From: an uncultured Fibrobacteraceae bacterium
Lineage (GTDB): Bacteria; Krumholzibacteriota; Krumholzibacteriia; LZORAL124-64-63
DNA length: 64,000 nt
Reading direction: 5' to 3'
NCBI GenBank assembly: GCA_964384825.1
Contig: CAYLMM010000003.1
Span: 48,463-112,462, forward strand
In this document: positions 13,565 to 45,809 of the stretch, piece by piece
Position numbering within the stretch: position 1 is the stretch's first letter
How the letters are laid out: each line of letters opens with the position of its first letter
The notes under the pieces: model-generated
Seen by the model: the letters and a program-made list of their open reading frames with translations, nothing else
What the model was told of the DNA's origin: nothing
Database searches by the model: none
Made by a program: the position numbers and the translations under genes

Positions 13565-13706
13565 GACCGATCTCCTCCGTCCGGGATCCCCGGCCGCGTC
13601 CGGGCGAACTGCGGCCGAAATCTCATAATCCTTTGCGTCGTTGCGAATCTACTAAACCCAGAGGGGGCTTGTCACGCATTTTCGCGTTTCCGGGGGGATC
13701 CGGGGC

Positions 13707-15279: not shown

Positions 15280-16566
15280 CTAGGGCAGGAACGCCTTCAC
15301 GTCGCCCAGCTTGCGGGGCAGGTACTCGTCCATCACGTAGTTCAGGCCGTGCTTGGCCAAAGCCTGCTGCTCGGCGCGGACCCCCATCTTGATCATCTGC
15401 AGCAAGGCCAGCTGCCATTGCTTGTGATGCAGGATGAACGGGTCGTTCTTCAGCGAGTCGCGGGCCCGCTTGACGTCCACTTCCTTCAGCGGATGGGTCG
15501 GCAGCTCGTAGTCGATGATGTCCTGCGGCGTGATGCCCAGGAAACGCGCCTGCGGCACGCAGAAGTACTGGTTCAGATGCGCCGCGTTGCCGCTGCCCAC
15601 CTTCAGGGTGCGGTAGATGTTCGAGAAGCCGTAGGGGTCGCCGTCGACGAAGACGTAGACCGGCAGCTTCTTCTCGTCCGCGAGCCGGCGCACGAAGCGG
15701 CGGCAGGCCCGGGTCGGCACGCCGCCGAGCGAGATCAGGATGCAGTCGGCCCGCTTCCAGTAGTTGTGCTTGACCAGCCGCTGGAACATGCCGGCGGTCT
15801 CGATGCAGAGGATGAACTTGGCGTCGGTCTCGAAACCCAGGTCCTCGACCGAGATCGGGATGGAATAGGCGCCGCTGCCGAACTTGGTGCAGTCGATGCG
15901 CAGCTGCTCGTTGGTGTCGCGGTCCTTGTCGATCACGACCAGGCGGCCGGCCACGTCGCCGCCCTTCTCCTCGGGCACGAAGCCCAGCTGCTCGCGGTTC
16001 ACGCGGTAGAAGGCCTCGACGTCCTCCATCACCGTGTCGGATTCGGGCTGCTCCTTGAAGCGCGCGTCCGCCCAGTTCTTGCTGACGTAGTAGGCTTCTC
16101 GCTTGGTGGCGATGTCGTCGGTCTCGACCAGTTCCTTCGACAGCGCCATCATCTTCAGCGTCTGGGCGAAGGTCTTGACCGTGCTGACGGTCAGGGTCCG
16201 CTCCTTGGTGCGGCCCTTCAGCTCGAAGTAGCCGACCTTCGGCCGGTAGTCGACGTTCTGCAGCGAGCGCAGCGGGAAGCGCATGGCCGGCTTGTCGCCC
16301 TTGAGGATCTTGTCGCGGATGGTGCCGGCCTCGCCGCGCATCTTCTTGAGCAGGGCGGGCGAACCGGCGACCGGGCCGGAGGCTCCCGGCGACGCCGGCG
16401 AGGCGATGATTTCGGCGGCGTCGGCGTCGACGGCCTTGCGCCGGGGATTCTTGCCGCCGCCTGCGGCCTTCGCGGCCGCGGCGCGGGCGGGCGCCGCCTT
16501 GCGCGCGGCGAAATCGAGTTCGGCTTGGGCGGCGGGACGCCGCTTGTCCTTGTCGGCACTGGGCAC
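15280..16566 (-). CDS. DNA topoisomerase VI subunit A (Spo11/TopoVI-A family)
   Basis: KREAYYV is the catalytic-Tyr (R-E/D-x-YY) motif. The Toprim residues are CIETAGMF (Glu) and VFVDGDPYG (DxD). I chose the GTG start 5 nt after the M32 stop with AGGAG upstream. The first ~90 aa are K/A/P-rich low complexity, so the true start could be a later ATG (MRGEAG). Confidence 0.8.
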   Translation of the reverse strand: MPSADKDKRRPAAQAELDFAARKAAPARAAAAKAAGGGKNPRRKAVDADAAEIIASPASPGASGPVAGSPALLKKMRGEAGTIRDKILKGDKPAMRFPLRSLQNVDYRPKVGYFELKGRTKERTLTVSTVKTFAQTLKMMALSKELVETDDIATKREAYYVSKNWADARFKEQPESDTVMEDVEAFYRVNREQLGFVPEEKGGDVAGRLVVIDKDRDTNEQLRIDCTKFGSGAYSIPISVEDLGFETDAKFILCIETAGMFQRLVKHNYWKRADCILISLGGVPTRACRRFVRRLADEKKLPVYVFVDGDPYGFSNIYRTLKVGSGNAAHLNQYFCVPQARFLGITPQDIIDYELPTHPLKEVDVKRARDSLKNDPFILHHKQWQLALLQMIKMGVRAEQQALAKHGLNYVMDEYLPRKLGDVKAFLP

Positions 16567-16571
16567 GTCGT

Positions 16572-18107
16572 TCACTCCTGTCTCCGGTCCGGAAGGCTCA
16601 GATCGTAAAGCTCGCCGTACTTGCCCTGCAGATGATTCGCGAACGGGTCGATGGACAGCTCCTCGCCGGTCGCCTCGCGGCAGAGCTCGCCCGCGGTCAG
16701 CAGCCGGCCGCGGACGTGGATCCGCTTGCGCAGCCAGTCCAGCAGCGGCGCGAAATCGCCGGCCGCGACGCGCTCGGGCAGATCGCCGATGTCCAGCGCC
16801 GCGCGGGCGTGGAACTGGGCCGCATAGAGATTGCCCAGGCTGTAGGTCGGGAAGTAGCCGAACATTCCGCAGGACCAGTGGATGTCCTGCAGCACGCCCT
16901 CGGCGTCGTCGCGCGGGACGATTCCCAGGTAGCCGGTCATCTTCTCGTTCCACAGGCCGGGCAGGTCGTCGACGGCGATCTCGCCGCGGAACAGCGACCG
17001 CTCCAGCTCGGTGCGCAGGATGATGTGCAGGTTGTAGGTCACCTCGTCGGCGTCGATCCGCACCGCGCCGGGCCGAACCACGTTGACCGCCCGGAAGAGC
17101 CGCCGCGCGTCCACGCCGGCGAAGCGGTCGGGGAAGGCCCCGGTCAGCAGCGGCAGCAGATGGTTCATGAAACCGACGCTGCGGCCCACCATGTTCTCCC
17201 ACAGCCGCGACTGCGATTCGTGGATGCCCAGGCTGACGGCCTCGGCCATCGGCGTGCCGGTGTGGGCGGGATCGAATCCCTGTTCGTAGAGCCCGTGGCC
17301 GCCCTCGTGCAGCGTCGAGTAGAGGACCTTGCCCAGATCCCGCGGATCGTAATGCGAGGTCAGCCGCACGTCGTCCGGATCGATCCCGGTGGTGAAGGGA
17401 TGGGCCGAGACGTCCAGCCGTCCGCGGTCGAGATCGAAGCCGATGCCGGTCAGCAGGCGCCTGGCGAGCCGTTCCTGGGCCGCGACGTCGAAGTCGCCCC
17501 GCAGCAGGTCGTCGTCGTCGCGGGGCGGATTGGCGCGGATGGCGGTCACCAGCGGCACCAGCACCCGGCGCAGCGAGGCGAAGAGCGGCTCGATGTCGGC
17601 CGTGCGCATGCCCGGTTCGAATTCGTCCAGCAGGGCGTCGTAGGGCTCGTCGGGGTAGCCGATGGCCTCGGCCTCCCGCCGGCGCAGGGTCACGAGTTCC
17701 GACAGCGCCGGCGCGAACCCGCTCCAGTCGGCCTTCTCGCGCGCCCGGACCCAGGCCTGCTGGCCGAGGCTGACCGCCTCGGCCAGGGCGGTCACCAGGT
17801 CGGTGGGCACCTTCACGGCCCGGTCGCGGTCGCGGGCGGCGGCGCGCACGTTGGCGGCCCCGGCCGGATCCAGATCGGCCTCGCCGAGTTCCGCGAGCAG
17901 ATCCCCGAACTCCGGATCGATGATCCTCTGATGCGACACGCCGGCCAAAGCGGCCCGCTGGCGGGAACGGCCGGCGATCGCGGCCGGCGGCATGCAGGTC
18001 TCCTGGTCCCACGAGAGCAGGGCCTGGCACGAGGAGAGCGCGTGGTGCTCGCGCAGCATCGAGACCAGCCGGCGATATTTCCGCGCGACGTTTTCGGGGT
18101 CGTTCAT
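16572..18107 (-). CDS. M32 carboxypeptidase Taq-like metallopeptidase
   Basis: HEGGHGLYE (HExxH), HESQSRLWE, DIHWS and GYFPTYSLG are M32 signature motifs. It is full-length (511 aa) and lies between the two Topo VI subunit genes. Confidence 0.85.
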   Translation of the reverse strand: MNDPENVARKYRRLVSMLREHHALSSCQALLSWDQETCMPPAAIAGRSRQRAALAGVSHQRIIDPEFGDLLAELGEADLDPAGAANVRAAARDRDRAVKVPTDLVTALAEAVSLGQQAWVRAREKADWSGFAPALSELVTLRRREAEAIGYPDEPYDALLDEFEPGMRTADIEPLFASLRRVLVPLVTAIRANPPRDDDDLLRGDFDVAAQERLARRLLTGIGFDLDRGRLDVSAHPFTTGIDPDDVRLTSHYDPRDLGKVLYSTLHEGGHGLYEQGFDPAHTGTPMAEAVSLGIHESQSRLWENMVGRSVGFMNHLLPLLTGAFPDRFAGVDARRLFRAVNVVRPGAVRIDADEVTYNLHIILRTELERSLFRGEIAVDDLPGLWNEKMTGYLGIVPRDDAEGVLQDIHWSCGMFGYFPTYSLGNLYAAQFHARAALDIGDLPERVAAGDFAPLLDWLRKRIHVRGRLLTAGELCREATGEELSIDPFANHLQGKYGELYDLSLPDRRQE

Positions 18108-18165
18108 GGCGATTCCTTCATGCCCGGGGCGGGGTGGACGTCGGTTCCGGCCGCAGGCGGGAGGC

Positions 18166-19866
18166 TCACATCTTGCGGCTGCGCTCCAGGGTGTCGGTCA
18201 GGGTGGCGATGATCTCCTCGCGCTCGTCCTCCTGCAGCCCCAGGATGTCCTTCAGGGCGTCCCCGATGTGGGGGATGTACTTCTGGATGTAGCTCTGCTT
18301 CTTCAGCGCGTCGCGTTCGCGCACCCGGCGCCGGATGTGGCGGTGCAGCTGCCGGCCGGCCTCCTGCAGGGCCAGCTTGATCTCCTTGACGATCTCCGGA
18401 TAGTGGGCGACCGCCTCCTTGCTCTCGGAGGTGAAGGGCACCCAGACCGAGGCCATGTGCACCAGGATCAGCAGCGGGCCCGAGGGCAGGGCCCCGCGCG
18501 ACTGCTGCAGCCCGTAGCTGCGCCAGTTGTTGCCCAACACCGCGCGGTGGATGGCGCAGGCAGAGGCCTGGTAAAGCAGCGGCACGCGGTTGGCGAAGCG
18601 CAGCACCTCGGCCAGGTCGTCGCCCGAGAGGCCGCCCCCGTAGGCCAGCCCGACCTCGATCTGGAAGGGATTGCCCCGGTAGACGGCGGGCGGCCGGGTG
18701 ACCGCGGTGTAGAAGTCGGCGTCGATCCGCGTCTGCAGCCCGGCCATCACCAGATCCGGTCCGATCGGCGAGAGGCAATCGGTCGGCGGCGAGGCGATGC
18801 GCGTTTCCGAGATGGCGTCGAGCAGGCCCTCGACATCCTGCCGGCTCATGTGGCGGGGGCTCTTGCGCAGCGTCAGGCCGGCCTCTTCGAGGATGGTCTC
18901 GGCGGTCTTGGGGCCGACCCGGCAGAACTCCTGGCGCAGGAAGGCGCTCATGTTGCGGGCCTTGGTCTCCTTGAGCATCCGCAGCATCATGCCCATCTCC
19001 ACTCCGTAGGGATGGGGCTTGATCTCGCTCGCCTCGACCGGCAGGGATTCGGCGGCGCGCGGATAGACGGCCTCGTCGCCCCGCGGCGAGCGGTAGACCA
19101 GCCGCACGTGGGGGTTCGCCACGGCGGTCTGCTGCAGGTAGGTGTCGACCGAGTGGTGGCCGCGCTTGTACGAGCCGGTCAGCTCGATCTCGACCCGCGT
19201 GCCGTGCTCGTGGTCCCAGACGAACTCCTCGTCGGTCTGGACCACGGGCTCGTTGCGCTTCATGTCGAGGGTCAGGGTCAGGCGGCGGGCCATCTCCTGC
19301 CCGCGGGGCCGCGAGACGACCGTCACCGGCTTGCCGGTGGTCAGCTGTCCGTACATGCCGGCGGCCGAGATGCCGATGCCCTGCTGGCCCCGGCTCTGCT
19401 TTAGGCTGTGGAATTTCGATCCGTAGAGCAGCTTGCCGAAGATCCGCGGGATCTGGGCCCGCACGATGCCCGGCCCGTTGTCCTGGATGACCAGCCGGTA
19501 GCGCTCCTCGCGCGCCGGCGGCGCGGTGCGGCGTTTCCCGTTCCCGTTCCCGTTGCCGTTCCCGTTGGCCTTCTCGTCCTCGGCGGTCAGGGCCAGGGTC
19601 TTTTCCGCCTTCCCGTTGCCGTTGGGCACCAGCGCGATCTCCACCAGGATGTCGGGCAGGATCCCGGCCTCCTCGCAGGCGTCGAGCGAGTTGTCGACGG
19701 CCTCCTTGATGGTCGTCAGCAGGGCCTTGGCGGGGGAATCGAACCCCAGAAGGTGGCGGTTCTTGGTGAAGAACTCGCTGATCGAGATCTCGCGCTGCTT
19801 CTTCGCCATGCTCTCGGCGGTGGCGACGCGGCGTTTACGGGTTGTCTTGGCGGTGGTTGCGGGCAT
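18166..19866 (-). CDS. DNA topoisomerase VI subunit B (GHKL/Bergerat ATPase + transducer)
   Basis: The N-box is EAVDNSLDA, the G1 box is DNGPGI and the G2 box is GQQGIGIS, with a transducer-like C-terminal half. It carries a (GN)4 insertion. Confidence 0.85.
19533..19570. repeat. hexanucleotide tandem repeat (gttccc/gttgcc)n inside the TopoVI-B coding sequence
   Basis: gtttcccgttcccgttcccgttgccgttcccgttggcc encodes NGNGNGNGNG on the minus strand. Confidence 0.6.
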
Positions 19867-44579: not shown

Positions 44580-45809
44580 GTGAACGTCGAAGCGAAACGC
44601 CGTCCGCTGCGCGTCGCCCAGTTCATCGAGACCCTCGAGACCGGCGGCGCGGAGCATCTCGCCATCCAGATCGCCAACGGCCGGGCGGCCGCCGGCGACG
44701 CCTCGCACCTCTATGTCATGCGCGGCCCCGGAGCCCTGTCCCCGCGGATCGCCCCGGACGTCCGCGTGCGGTACCTGCGTTTCGAACGGGCCTCGATCGG
44801 CGCGCCGCCGCGATTCGCCGCCTCGCTGCTGCGCGGTTCACGGATGCTCCGCTCCCGGATGGACGAAGACCGGATCGACGTCCTGCAGACCCACCTGCCC
44901 GGATCCAATTATTGGGGGTTGCTGCTGCGCCTGCTGGGCGTGCGCGGGATCGTGCCGACCATCCACAACAACCAGGAATTCGGCTACGGAGAATCGGTCT
45001 CGGGATTCCGGATGCGATTGCGGCGCGCGGCCTACGGACTGATGCTGCGCCGCTGCCCGGCAACGGTCTGCGTTTCGGAGATGGTCAAGAGGTCGATGAT
45101 CGACGAGCTGGGGCTCGACCCGGGGACCGCCGCCCGAATGGCGGTGGTGCCCAACGGCGTGCCGGTGCCCGCGCGCCGCGATGCGGCCGTTCTGGCCGCG
45201 ACCCGGGAACGGTACGGCGTTCCCGCGGATTCCCCCTTCCTGCTGGCGGCCGGTCGGCACACCGAACAGAAGGATTTCCGGACCCTGATCGACGCCGTCG
45301 GACGGCTGCGCGCATCGGGCCGGCGGCCGCGGCTGGTGCTGGCGGGCGACGGTCCGCTGCGCGAGAGCCTGCGCGCGCAGGCCGAGGCCGGGGGACTCGC
45401 CGGGACCGTCATCCTGCCGGGCAACGTCGAAGATCTGGGCGACCTCTTCCAGGCGGCCGACATGTTCGTGATGAGTTCGCTCTGGGAAGGACTGCCCCTG
45501 GTCCTGCTCGAGGCGCTGGCTTCGGGCTGCGCCGTGGTGGGGACGCGCATTTCCGGCATCGACGAGATTCTCGGCGGCGGCGAGGGGGCGTCCGGCGCCG
45601 GGCTGCTGGTCCCGCCCGCCGATCCCGATGCGCTGGCCGAAGCGGTGGCCTCGCTGATCGACGATCCGCAGCGTCGCGCCGTTCTCGGCGCCGCCGGCCG
45701 CGCCCTGGTCGAGGATCGTTTCAGCTTCGCGCGGGTCGACCGCGATCTCGGCGAACTCTACGCCCGGGTGGCCGCCGGCCGCGCTCCGGAGCCGGAGGCC
45801 CGCGCATGA
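44580..45809 (+). CDS. GT4-family glycosyltransferase
   Basis: LRVAQFIETLETGGAEHL and SSLWEGLPLVLLEALASGCAVVGT (EX7E). The start is GTG. Confidence 0.75.
   Translation: MNVEAKRRPLRVAQFIETLETGGAEHLAIQIANGRAAAGDASHLYVMRGPGALSPRIAPDVRVRYLRFERASIGAPPRFAASLLRGSRMLRSRMDEDRIDVLQTHLPGSNYWGLLLRLLGVRGIVPTIHNNQEFGYGESVSGFRMRLRRAAYGLMLRRCPATVCVSEMVKRSMIDELGLDPGTAARMAVVPNGVPVPARRDAAVLAATRERYGVPADSPFLLAAGRHTEQKDFRTLIDAVGRLRASGRRPRLVLAGDGPLRESLRAQAEAGGLAGTVILPGNVEDLGDLFQAADMFVMSSLWEGLPLVLLEALASGCAVVGTRISGIDEILGGGEGASGAGLLVPPADPDALAEAVASLIDDPQRRAVLGAAGRALVEDRFSFARVDRDLGELYARVAAGRAPEPEARA

Follow-up and report, generated by a model that had tools for sequence, protein, structure and literature searches.

Organization of the Topoisomerase VI Locus

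The window analyzed here, a 64,000-nucleotide stretch of contig CAYLMM010000003.1 (assembly GCA_964384825.1) from an uncultured bacterium, carries the genes for both subunits of topoisomerase VI (topo VI), a type IIB topoisomerase of archaeal type. The two genes belong to a string of five that run head to tail on the minus strand. At its start is top6B (18166−19866), which encodes a 566-amino acid (aa) subunit B, Top6B, with GHKL ATPase, H2TH, and transducer domains and no C-terminal Ig-like domain. Between top6B and top6A lies the gene for a 511-aa metallopeptidase of the M32 (carboxypeptidase Taq) family (16572−18107). The top6A gene (15280−16566) has a GTG start and encodes the 428-aa subunit A, Top6A. 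It is followed by the gene for a 283-aa BepA/LoiP-like M48 zinc metallopeptidase with a lipoprotein signal (14402−15253) and by the gene for a 222-aa NUDIX-family phosphoesterase of the TM1382 type (13707−14375, TTG start). A first-pass annotation, made by reading the sequence without database searches, had described a complete M32 gene between the two subunit genes on one strand and a continuation into M48 lipoprotein peptidase and NUDIX genes. Pfam searches bear this out, returning a full-length M32 match with the expected motifs as well as matches to the two downstream families.

The genes are tightly packed. A 58 bp spacer separates top6B from the M32 gene, and spacers of 26 bp flank the M48 gene on both sides. 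The M32−top6A spacer is 5 bp when counted from the GTG at 16566, so the 5 and 58 bp distances reported in the first pass are confirmed; an in-frame GTG at 16575 would give a 4-base GTGA overlap with the M32 stop codon. The upstream neighbor, a methyltransferase gene, is 102 bp away, and the downstream neighbor, the malate dehydrogenase gene mdh (12608−13564), is 142 bp away. The region 12400−21000 contains a single promoter-like site, a minus-strand sigma-70-like match at 13646−13675 (a consensus match only) that lies between the NUDIX gene and mdh, 5′ of the latter. The spacers between the five genes contain no terminator-like hairpin, and hairpins in the region are no more numerous than expected by chance. 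The tight spacers, the lack of such hairpins within them, and the position of the sole promoter-like site make co-transcription of the five genes plausible, and the promoter-like match suggests that mdh forms a separate transcription unit. The G+C content is uniform, at 0.63−0.73 per 2-kb block of the window and 0.68−0.70 over the locus.

Catalytic Core of Subunit A

Both subunit assignments had originally been made from motifs, all of which are present, and hidden Markov model searches now support them (Pfam for both subunits, NCBIfam for Top6B). Top6A contains KREAYYV (residues 155−161), CIETAG (254−259), and DGDPYG (308−313), and it matches the Pfam domains TP6A_N (E-value 4e-15), Topo_VI_alpha (2e-17), and TOP6A-Spo11_Toprim (6.7e-60). 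The protein is 58% identical over 303 aa to Methanocaldococcus jannaschii Top6A (1D3Y), and its Y160 lines up with Tyr103 of the M. jannaschii protein, the catalytic residue. Y160, E256, D308, and D310 are invariant among 49 Top6A homologues. The best NCBIfam equivalog model, NF003337, scores 489.9 bits, below its cut-off of 675 bits. Given that these sub-models are narrow and that each of the three Pfam domains exceeds its cut-off, we read this score as divergence from the seed lineages rather than as non-membership.

A distribution scan covering one genome per GTDB species detected close Top6A relatives in at least 578 species. The best 80 of these relatives are 70−91% identical to the protein studied here, and their loci were compared with the window by tblastn of the window proteins; the synteny counts given below refer to these 80 loci. 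Among the full-length Top6A representatives of a protein library clustered at 50% identity, the best has 62% identity and the next ones fall to ~38%, a drop that delimits a tight Top6A clade. The same library holds many representatives of 800−1060 aa (P0148−P0225) with a Top6A-like region at one end (32−40% identity), which are possibly B−A fusions or eukaryotic or mobile-element forms. Top6A is also >70% identical across metagenome-assembled genomes (MAGs) labeled as different phyla, an unusual level of conservation for a topoisomerase subunit. In most loci of the type seen here, termed Krumholzibacteriia-type after the labels of the closest relatives, the top6A start codon nearest the stop codon of the gene upstream is TTG or GTG, and in several other lineages it is ATG; such non-ATG starts may tune the A:B stoichiometry.

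Subunit B and Its ATPase-Domain Insertion

Top6B retains the N-box EAVDNSLDA (residues 55−63), the G1 box DNGPGI (129−134), the G2 box GQQGIGIS (160−167), and the transducer motif SESKEA (480−485). It matches Topo-VIb_trans (2.2e-58) and HATPase_c (3e-7) in Pfam and passes two NCBIfam equivalog cut-offs, NF003218 (683 versus 274 bits) and TIGR01052 (536 versus 381 bits). The best Protein Data Bank (PDB) match is Methanosarcina mazei Top6B (2Q2E_B, E-value 1.7e-148), with the alignment extending to chain residue 504 of 621 and SESKEA aligning with SESKDA of the M. mazei protein.

Residues 79−123 (19498−19632, minus strand), which lie between the N-box helix and the G1 box, do not align with either M. 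mazei or Saccharolobus shibatae Top6B. The M. mazei counterpart is ~8 residues long (chain residues 67−75), giving a net insertion of ~37 aa here. The insertion is NG-rich and has an acidic/leucine patch with a semiconserved L-[ED]-L as well as a basic end. A hexanucleotide repeat had been noted in the first pass as encoding a (GN)4 insertion. The repeat-encoded insertion stands, although the repeat (19535−19566, minus strand; Tandem Repeats Finder period 6, 5.3 copies, 92% matches) encodes (NG)5 and forms part of the larger ~37-aa segment. Insertions of about 25−75 aa occupy this GHKL site in every Krumholzibacteriia-type locus, and the NG run varies in length among species. The slice from the N-box to G1 spans 64−115 residues in these loci versus 39−40 in other lineages, the exception being locus L080. 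This locus, from a groundwater MAG labeled Deltaproteobacteria, has its own Top6B insertion at exactly the same site (L080:6307−7965), with NGNG and a basic stretch; its Top6A has no tail, and it groups in the tree with a locus labeled Brocadiales. This position appears to be an insertion hotspot. The NG-rich segment appears to be new and clade-specific; no description of it was found.

The N-Terminal Tail of Subunit A

The second clade-specific feature is a disordered Ala/Pro/Lys/Arg-rich tail that makes up residues 1−68 of Top6A (16363−16566, minus strand). Alignment with the solved archaeal Top6A proteins begins at query residue 83−86, with just ~28−30 residues ahead of that point in the archaeal chains, and the core here is thus preceded by ~55−57 more residues. 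An AlphaFold2 model of moderate quality (mean predicted local distance difference test score (pLDDT) 64, predicted template modeling score 0.56) was used only to distinguish order from disorder. In this model residues 1−68 have no predicted secondary structure, pLDDT is 35−52 over blocks 1−70, and the first helix comprises residues 69−88. The ~90-aa K/A/P-rich basic extension described in the first pass therefore holds as a basic extension, with the unstructured part shortened to ~68 aa. Among 120 close homologues the tails have a median length of 84 aa, are rich in Lys, Ala, and Pro, and cannot be aligned. Net charges among the homologue tails listed range from about +7 to +32; the tail in the window, which is Ala-rich and mildly basic, carries +7.

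Within these otherwise unalignable tails is a short linear motif, Q-x-[EDSQ]-[LIM]-x-[FLW], which occurs in 107 of 118 homologue tails (mean in shuffled tails, 0.38). Its typical form is Q-x-E-L-x-F followed by a conserved [GS]-A-P. In the window it reads QAELDF (residues 14−19; 16510−16527, minus strand), within the N-terminal peptide KRRPAAQAELDFAARK. In an alignment of Top6A homologues, Q14, E16, and F19 are each conserved at ≥90%, and throughout the family the Q, E, L, and F of the motif hardly vary. The motif mostly falls within the first ~40 residues of the homologue tails; of the eleven tails that do not match, some are truncated and some have QADLF or QAELF. It is also specific: 179,000 aa of confident open reading frames (ORFs) from related loci contain 39 matches, all in the Top6A tail and none in any other protein of these loci. 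Tail and motif are present in Krumholzibacteriia-type loci with or without the M32 gene. They were not found in Myxococcota-, Latescibacterota-, or Acidobacteria-type loci, and outside the clade the motif is absent from the Top6A lineages of the representative library, some of which have basic N-termini.

QAELDF resembles the motifs by which proteins bind the β sliding clamp (DnaN). It fits the hexapeptide consensus Q-ϕ-x-[L/M]-x-[F/L] (bioRxiv 10.1101/2025.08.20.671105) and differs at two nonanchor positions from the validated C-terminal clamp motif QVELEF of Escherichia coli Pol III α. Known clamp motifs include QL[SD]LF, the Pol III α sequences QVELEF and QADMF, and the N-terminal QLSLPL of Hda. 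The Top6A motif shares with them its position near a terminus in a disordered segment, as well as the pentapeptide variants QADLF and QAELF found in homologues. It differs in that position 2 of the family is often G, P, or Q, and its clamp binding is a prediction. The clamp-partner table of a published review (PMC9690074) contains no bacterial topoisomerase, and no paper tying topo VI to clamp-binding motifs was found. The tail motif, like the Top6B insertion, appears to be new and clade-specific, no description of it having been found.

Lys/Ala/Pro-rich tails that resemble histone H1 are known on bacterial DNA-binding proteins, for example, the C-terminal tails of mycobacterial HupB and topo I. 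The Top6A tails are likewise of low complexity, K/A/P-rich, mostly strongly basic, fast-evolving, and unalignable. They differ in being N-terminal and on a type IIB topoisomerase, and the tail in the window is Ala-rich with a net charge of only +7.

Authenticity and Distribution

Three samples (SAMN06140900 to SAMN06140902), each assembled on its own, yielded contigs with identical proteins in the same gene order, the longest contig being ~112 kb. The M32 gene is thus not an assembly chimera, a possibility that the first pass had left to be checked, the same arrangement having been assembled independently three times. The flanking genes are bacterial and include glycosyltransferases, Wzy, MurJ, a SPOR protein, a sigma-54 two-component pair, and futalosine-pathway genes.

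Among the matches listed, the closest relatives are labeled mostly as Candidatus Krumholzibacteriia or Krumholzibacteriota, and from these labels the host most likely belongs to Krumholzibacteriota. More distant relatives carry the labels Myxococcota, Latescibacterota, Eisenbacteria, Acidobacteria, and Brocadiales. MAGs that share the synteny of top6, NUDIX, and mdh (L004−L054) bear incompatible labels, namely, uncultured Fibrobacteraceae, Gemmatimonas sp., Actinomycetota, Acidobacteriota, Latescibacterota, and Krumholzibacteriia, which suggests that many public taxonomic labels of this lineage are unreliable. Topo VI appears to have been inherited vertically within this bacterial class rather than acquired by recent transfer.

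The first-pass annotation had regarded type IIB topoisomerases as sporadic in bacteria. The enzyme is indeed of archaeal type, although its presence here is unsurprising, given that topo VI is already documented in 17 bacterial families (PMC11302465) and that close relatives of this Top6A occur in at least 578 GTDB species. Across this whole uncultured lineage, topo VI appears to serve as a stable housekeeping enzyme, strongly conserved and vertically inherited, and its spread is far broader than the 17 families cataloged from cultured organisms.

The M32 Gene and the B−A Junction

The M32 protein matches Peptidase_M32 (1.2e-172) over profile positions 4−489 of 489 and contains HEGGH (residues 267−271), HESQSR (296−301), and GYFPTY (417−422), as well as DADE and HWS; no NCBIfam model matched it. 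The synteny survey, which the first pass had proposed as a check, shows that its position is conserved. An M32 gene lies directly 5′ of top6A in ~29 other species, with 51−69% identity, and 26 of these have top6B on the same contig and show the complete B−M32−A order. In ~22 further species of the same clade, top6B and top6A are adjacent and are followed by the NUDIX gene and mdh. The loci of other phyla have B−A alone.

A neighbor-joining tree of concatenated Top6A and Top6B places all NUDIX-bearing loci in one monophyletic clade, within which the M32-bearing loci form a basal grade and the M32-less loci a derived subclade. M32 distances track those of the topo VI subunits (Mantel r 0.79; 0 of 2000 permutations as high). 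Mean p-distances among M32-bearing loci are 0.149 for Top6A, 0.235 for Top6B, and 0.437 for M32, and M32 evolves about two to three times faster than the topo VI subunits. The simplest reading is a single early insertion of M32, vertical co-descent with the topo VI genes, and later loss in the derived subclade. Repeated independent insertion is disfavored by the Mantel correlation and by the basal-grade distribution. The top6A start follows a GGAG-type site and lies between 8 nt of overlap and 60 nt past the stop codon of the preceding gene, whatever its identity, and in the closest relatives it overlaps the M32 stop. After entering the operon, M32 would have become translationally coupled to top6A before the subclade lost it.

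The two subunit genes had been assumed in the first pass to be normally adjacent. This is not a rule, as several lineages have other, unrelated genes between top6B (or M32) and top6A, judged from their translations only. They include S-adenosylmethionine-methyltransferase-like ORFs (L016:6851−7747, L021:7001−7696, and L024:7232−7951), aminotransferase-like and cyclase-like ORFs in an Eisenbacteria locus (L071:6200−8000), and two ORFs with low third-position G+C in a Brocadiales locus (L077:6290−7772). The B−A junction is permissive, and for this reason we treat M32 and M48 as passengers. The M32 split is genuine and ancient and probably has no mechanistic meaning. It provides an example of an unrelated gene that was long fixed inside an essential two-subunit operon and then lost, which is useful for studying operon evolution and stoichiometry control, without itself being a new mechanism.

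The M48 and NUDIX Genes

The M48 protein matches Peptidase_M48 (8.3e-37) and has an HEMGH motif (residues 142−146) and an LSGC lipobox (33−36). It scores below the NCBIfam equivalog cut-offs for BepA (117 versus 570) and LoiP (75 versus 365), and by these scores it is a member of the family and not an assigned orthologue of either. The lipoprotein signal indicates that the protein is exported, which rules out a role in DNA repair. Of the related loci, ~15 have an M48 gene 3′ of top6A.

The Pfam match of the NUDIX protein is weak (1.5e-6; 28.7 against a cut-off of 21.1). The RELNEETGL half of the NUDIX box (residues 117−125) is intact, and the G-to-RE spacing is longer than canonical, as in TM1382, the uncharacterized Thermotoga protein that is also its PDB match (3E57, 5e-14). 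Relatives carry the Joint Genome Institute name “predicted NUDIX family phosphoesterase”. The gene lies 3′ of top6A in nearly all Krumholzibacteriia-type loci, whether or not they have M32. Its close relatives are confined to the same clade, so there are no independent lineages in which to gauge its linkage to topo VI.

Proposed Function of the Enzyme

The Top6A/Top6B pair is intact, with all catalytic motifs present, and lies in a compact co-directional gene string. We consider it probable, by analogy with characterized topo VI, that its product is a functional A2B2 type IIB topoisomerase, inherited vertically, in whose operon M32 represents one early insertion. The M32, periplasmic M48, and TM1382-like NUDIX proteins are best read as co-transcribed passengers rather than as topoisomerase machinery. 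In the proposed mechanism, the A2B2 heterotetramer would capture one duplex at its ATP gate; Y160 and the Toprim metal site would create a transient double-strand break, through which the captured duplex would pass. By the same analogy, the enzyme should be an ATP-dependent decatenase and supercoil relaxase. Bacteria that have topo VI and lie outside Pseudomonadota and Terrabacteria are reported to lack topo IV (PMC11302465); given this published absence, topo VI probably fills the topo IV role in this lineage.

Allen and Maxwell (2024, PMC11302465) listed 17 bacterial families with topo VI, divided between two clusters that were both acquired horizontally and of which one lies next to Methanococcales, and described the role of topo VI in bacteria as an open question. 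By its sequence, the present enzyme belongs to the bacterial cluster closest to Methanococcales. It resembles the other members of this cluster, for example, those of Anaeromyxobacter, Bdellovibrio, and Nitrospira (PMC11302465), in having separate A and B genes with all catalytic motifs, a B subunit without the C-terminal Ig-like domain, Methanococcales as its nearest archaea, and a Gram-negative host lineage outside Pseudomonadota and Terrabacteria. It differs in its host lineage, apparently Krumholzibacteriota, which is not among the 17 families; in the ~70−120 aa disordered basic A tail with Q-x-E-L-x-F; in the 25−75 aa NG-rich B insertion; and in the many operons with M32 between B and A and NUDIX downstream. 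No paper connecting Krumholzibacteriota with topoisomerases was found. Compared with the archaeal enzymes of known structure (1D3Y, 2Q2E, and S. shibatae 2ZBK), the enzyme shares both its order of domains and its active-site residues; Top6A is 58% identical to the M. jannaschii protein, and the M. mazei chain is the best PDB match of Top6B. The extra N-terminal residues of Top6A, the Top6B insertion, and the missing Ig-like domain set it apart, as does the bacterial host, which presumably has DnaN rather than PCNA. Topo VI in bacteria was already known; the new contribution of this locus lies in the insertion in the ATPase domain and in a tail motif shared throughout the clade.

The tail motif would tether Top6A to DnaN clamps that remain on the DNA once the replication fork has passed, with the Lys/Ala/Pro-rich tail contributing nonspecific affinity for DNA. 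We advance this proposal tentatively and put its chances at somewhat less than even. A broader form of it, to which we give a little less credence still, is that an archaeal-derived topo VI has been adapted to the bacterial replisome, such that the clamp on newly replicated DNA could recruit a decatenase to precatenanes. If true, clamp docking would make this the first clamp-tethered bacterial type II topoisomerase and a case of a horizontally acquired enzyme wired into a host machine via a short linear motif. The motif thus offers a concrete and cheap targeting hypothesis for topo VI in the bacterial cell, and the NG-rich insertion and basic tail are natural variants for probing the sensing of DNA crossings and gate control.

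Alternative Explanations

The 58% identity of Top6A to a Methanococcales protein could be taken as a sign of archaeal contamination, an assembly chimera, or very recent horizontal transfer. We regard all of these as extremely improbable and reject contamination and chimerism: the five-gene order recurs in three separately assembled samples, G+C is flat along the contig at 0.66−0.72, synteny with mdh and NUDIX is kept in dozens of species, and bacterial genes (the lipoprotein peptidase, sigma-54 regulators, MurJ, Wzy, and SPOR) surround the subunits, which also answers the concern of the first pass that both might sit on an archaeal contaminant contig. Nor is the Top6A-like protein at all likely to be the Toprim nuclease of a Wadjet/MksBEFG defense system or part of a plasmid-borne topo VIII. 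PADLOC does report a JetD match, but this is a weak, partial Toprim hit (E-value 2.7e-6, 24.7 bits) at the level of distant Toprim homology. No JetABC/Mks or SMC-like genes lie nearby, the context is chromosomal and housekeeping, and the accompanying Top6B is complete, with ATPase and transducer, and exceeds the equivalog cut-offs; the defense nuclease is accordingly ruled out. Topo VIII was set aside, with no separate test, since A and B are separate genes that closely match archaeal topo VI. An enzyme inherited within the bacterial class remains the favored reading. The peptidases and the NUDIX protein could instead be functional partners of topo VI, the five genes being kept by selection and not by inertia; M32 might, for example, degrade the peptide remnants of trapped Top6A−DNA cleavage complexes, and the NUDIX protein might control a nucleotide that affects the ATPase. 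The B−M32−A order has persisted despite M32 divergence to 51% identity, and the stop/start overlap with top6A in the closest relatives, like the near-constant NUDIX position, would fit such a tie. However, the derived subclade without M32 keeps both topo VI and NUDIX, M48 accompanies top6A in just ~15 loci and its product is exported away from DNA, unrelated genes sit at the same junction in other lineages, and the topo VI operons of other phyla have none of the three genes. M32 enzymes are, moreover, general oligopeptide carboxypeptidases. We therefore consider partnership unlikely and keep the passenger interpretation, against which two points weigh. M32 may have been kept so long, with its stop overlapping the top6A start, because it is functionally tied to topo VI and did not simply hitch-hike; and the NUDIX position is as conserved within the class as the B−A pair, which weakens the case for calling NUDIX a passenger. 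The taxonomic assignment of the host, in turn, rests on inconsistent MAG labels.

For the tail, the main competitor to clamp docking is that Q-x-E-L-x-F binds another partner, such as SMC/ScpAB, ParB, or SSB, or contacts the Top6B insertion to regulate the ATP gate. Motif and insertion are confined to exactly the same clade, as a contact between them would predict, but shared ancestry alone explains this co-occurrence. The family pattern also sits uneasily with the clamp: position 2 is G, P, or Q in most homologues, with an aliphatic A in just 23 of 106, and the conserved [GS]-A-P after the motif lies beyond the clamp consensus. On the other side stand the exact fit of QAELDF to the hexapeptide consensus, its closeness to QVELEF at all anchor positions, the pentapeptide variants in homologues, and the terminal, disordered setting that is usual for clamp motifs. 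Binding to another partner or to the Top6B insertion is accordingly a real possibility, although not one that we would call probable.

Other Features of the Window

A large polysaccharide-biosynthesis cluster occupies ~20900−45800. It includes several GT4 glycosyltransferases, a UDP-GlcNAc 2-epimerase, an asparagine-synthase-like protein, a pyruvyl transferase, and an MBOAT protein, together with a flippase-like protein of the MatE/Polysacc_synt_3 family, Poly_export, Wzz, Wzy, MurJ, and an AAA-SPOR protein. Directly past it, at 45806−47954, are menaquinone genes of the futalosine route (VitK2_biosynth and a radical SAM protein with CofH_C). Beyond mdh, on the side away from the operon (8078−12458), lie a YceI-like gene, a gene for a small zf-CDGSH iron−sulfur protein, and a HAMP histidine kinase with a sigma-54-activating response regulator. 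Finally, a 755-aa ORF on the plus strand (58035−60302) shows a coding-type G+C pattern throughout. Its first ~590 residues have no Pfam match at E ≤ 1e-5, and its last ~155 residues match the N and C domains of GreA/GreB (~4e-17 each). This pattern suggests a long GreA-like factor extended considerably at its N-terminus, or else an over-extended ORF.

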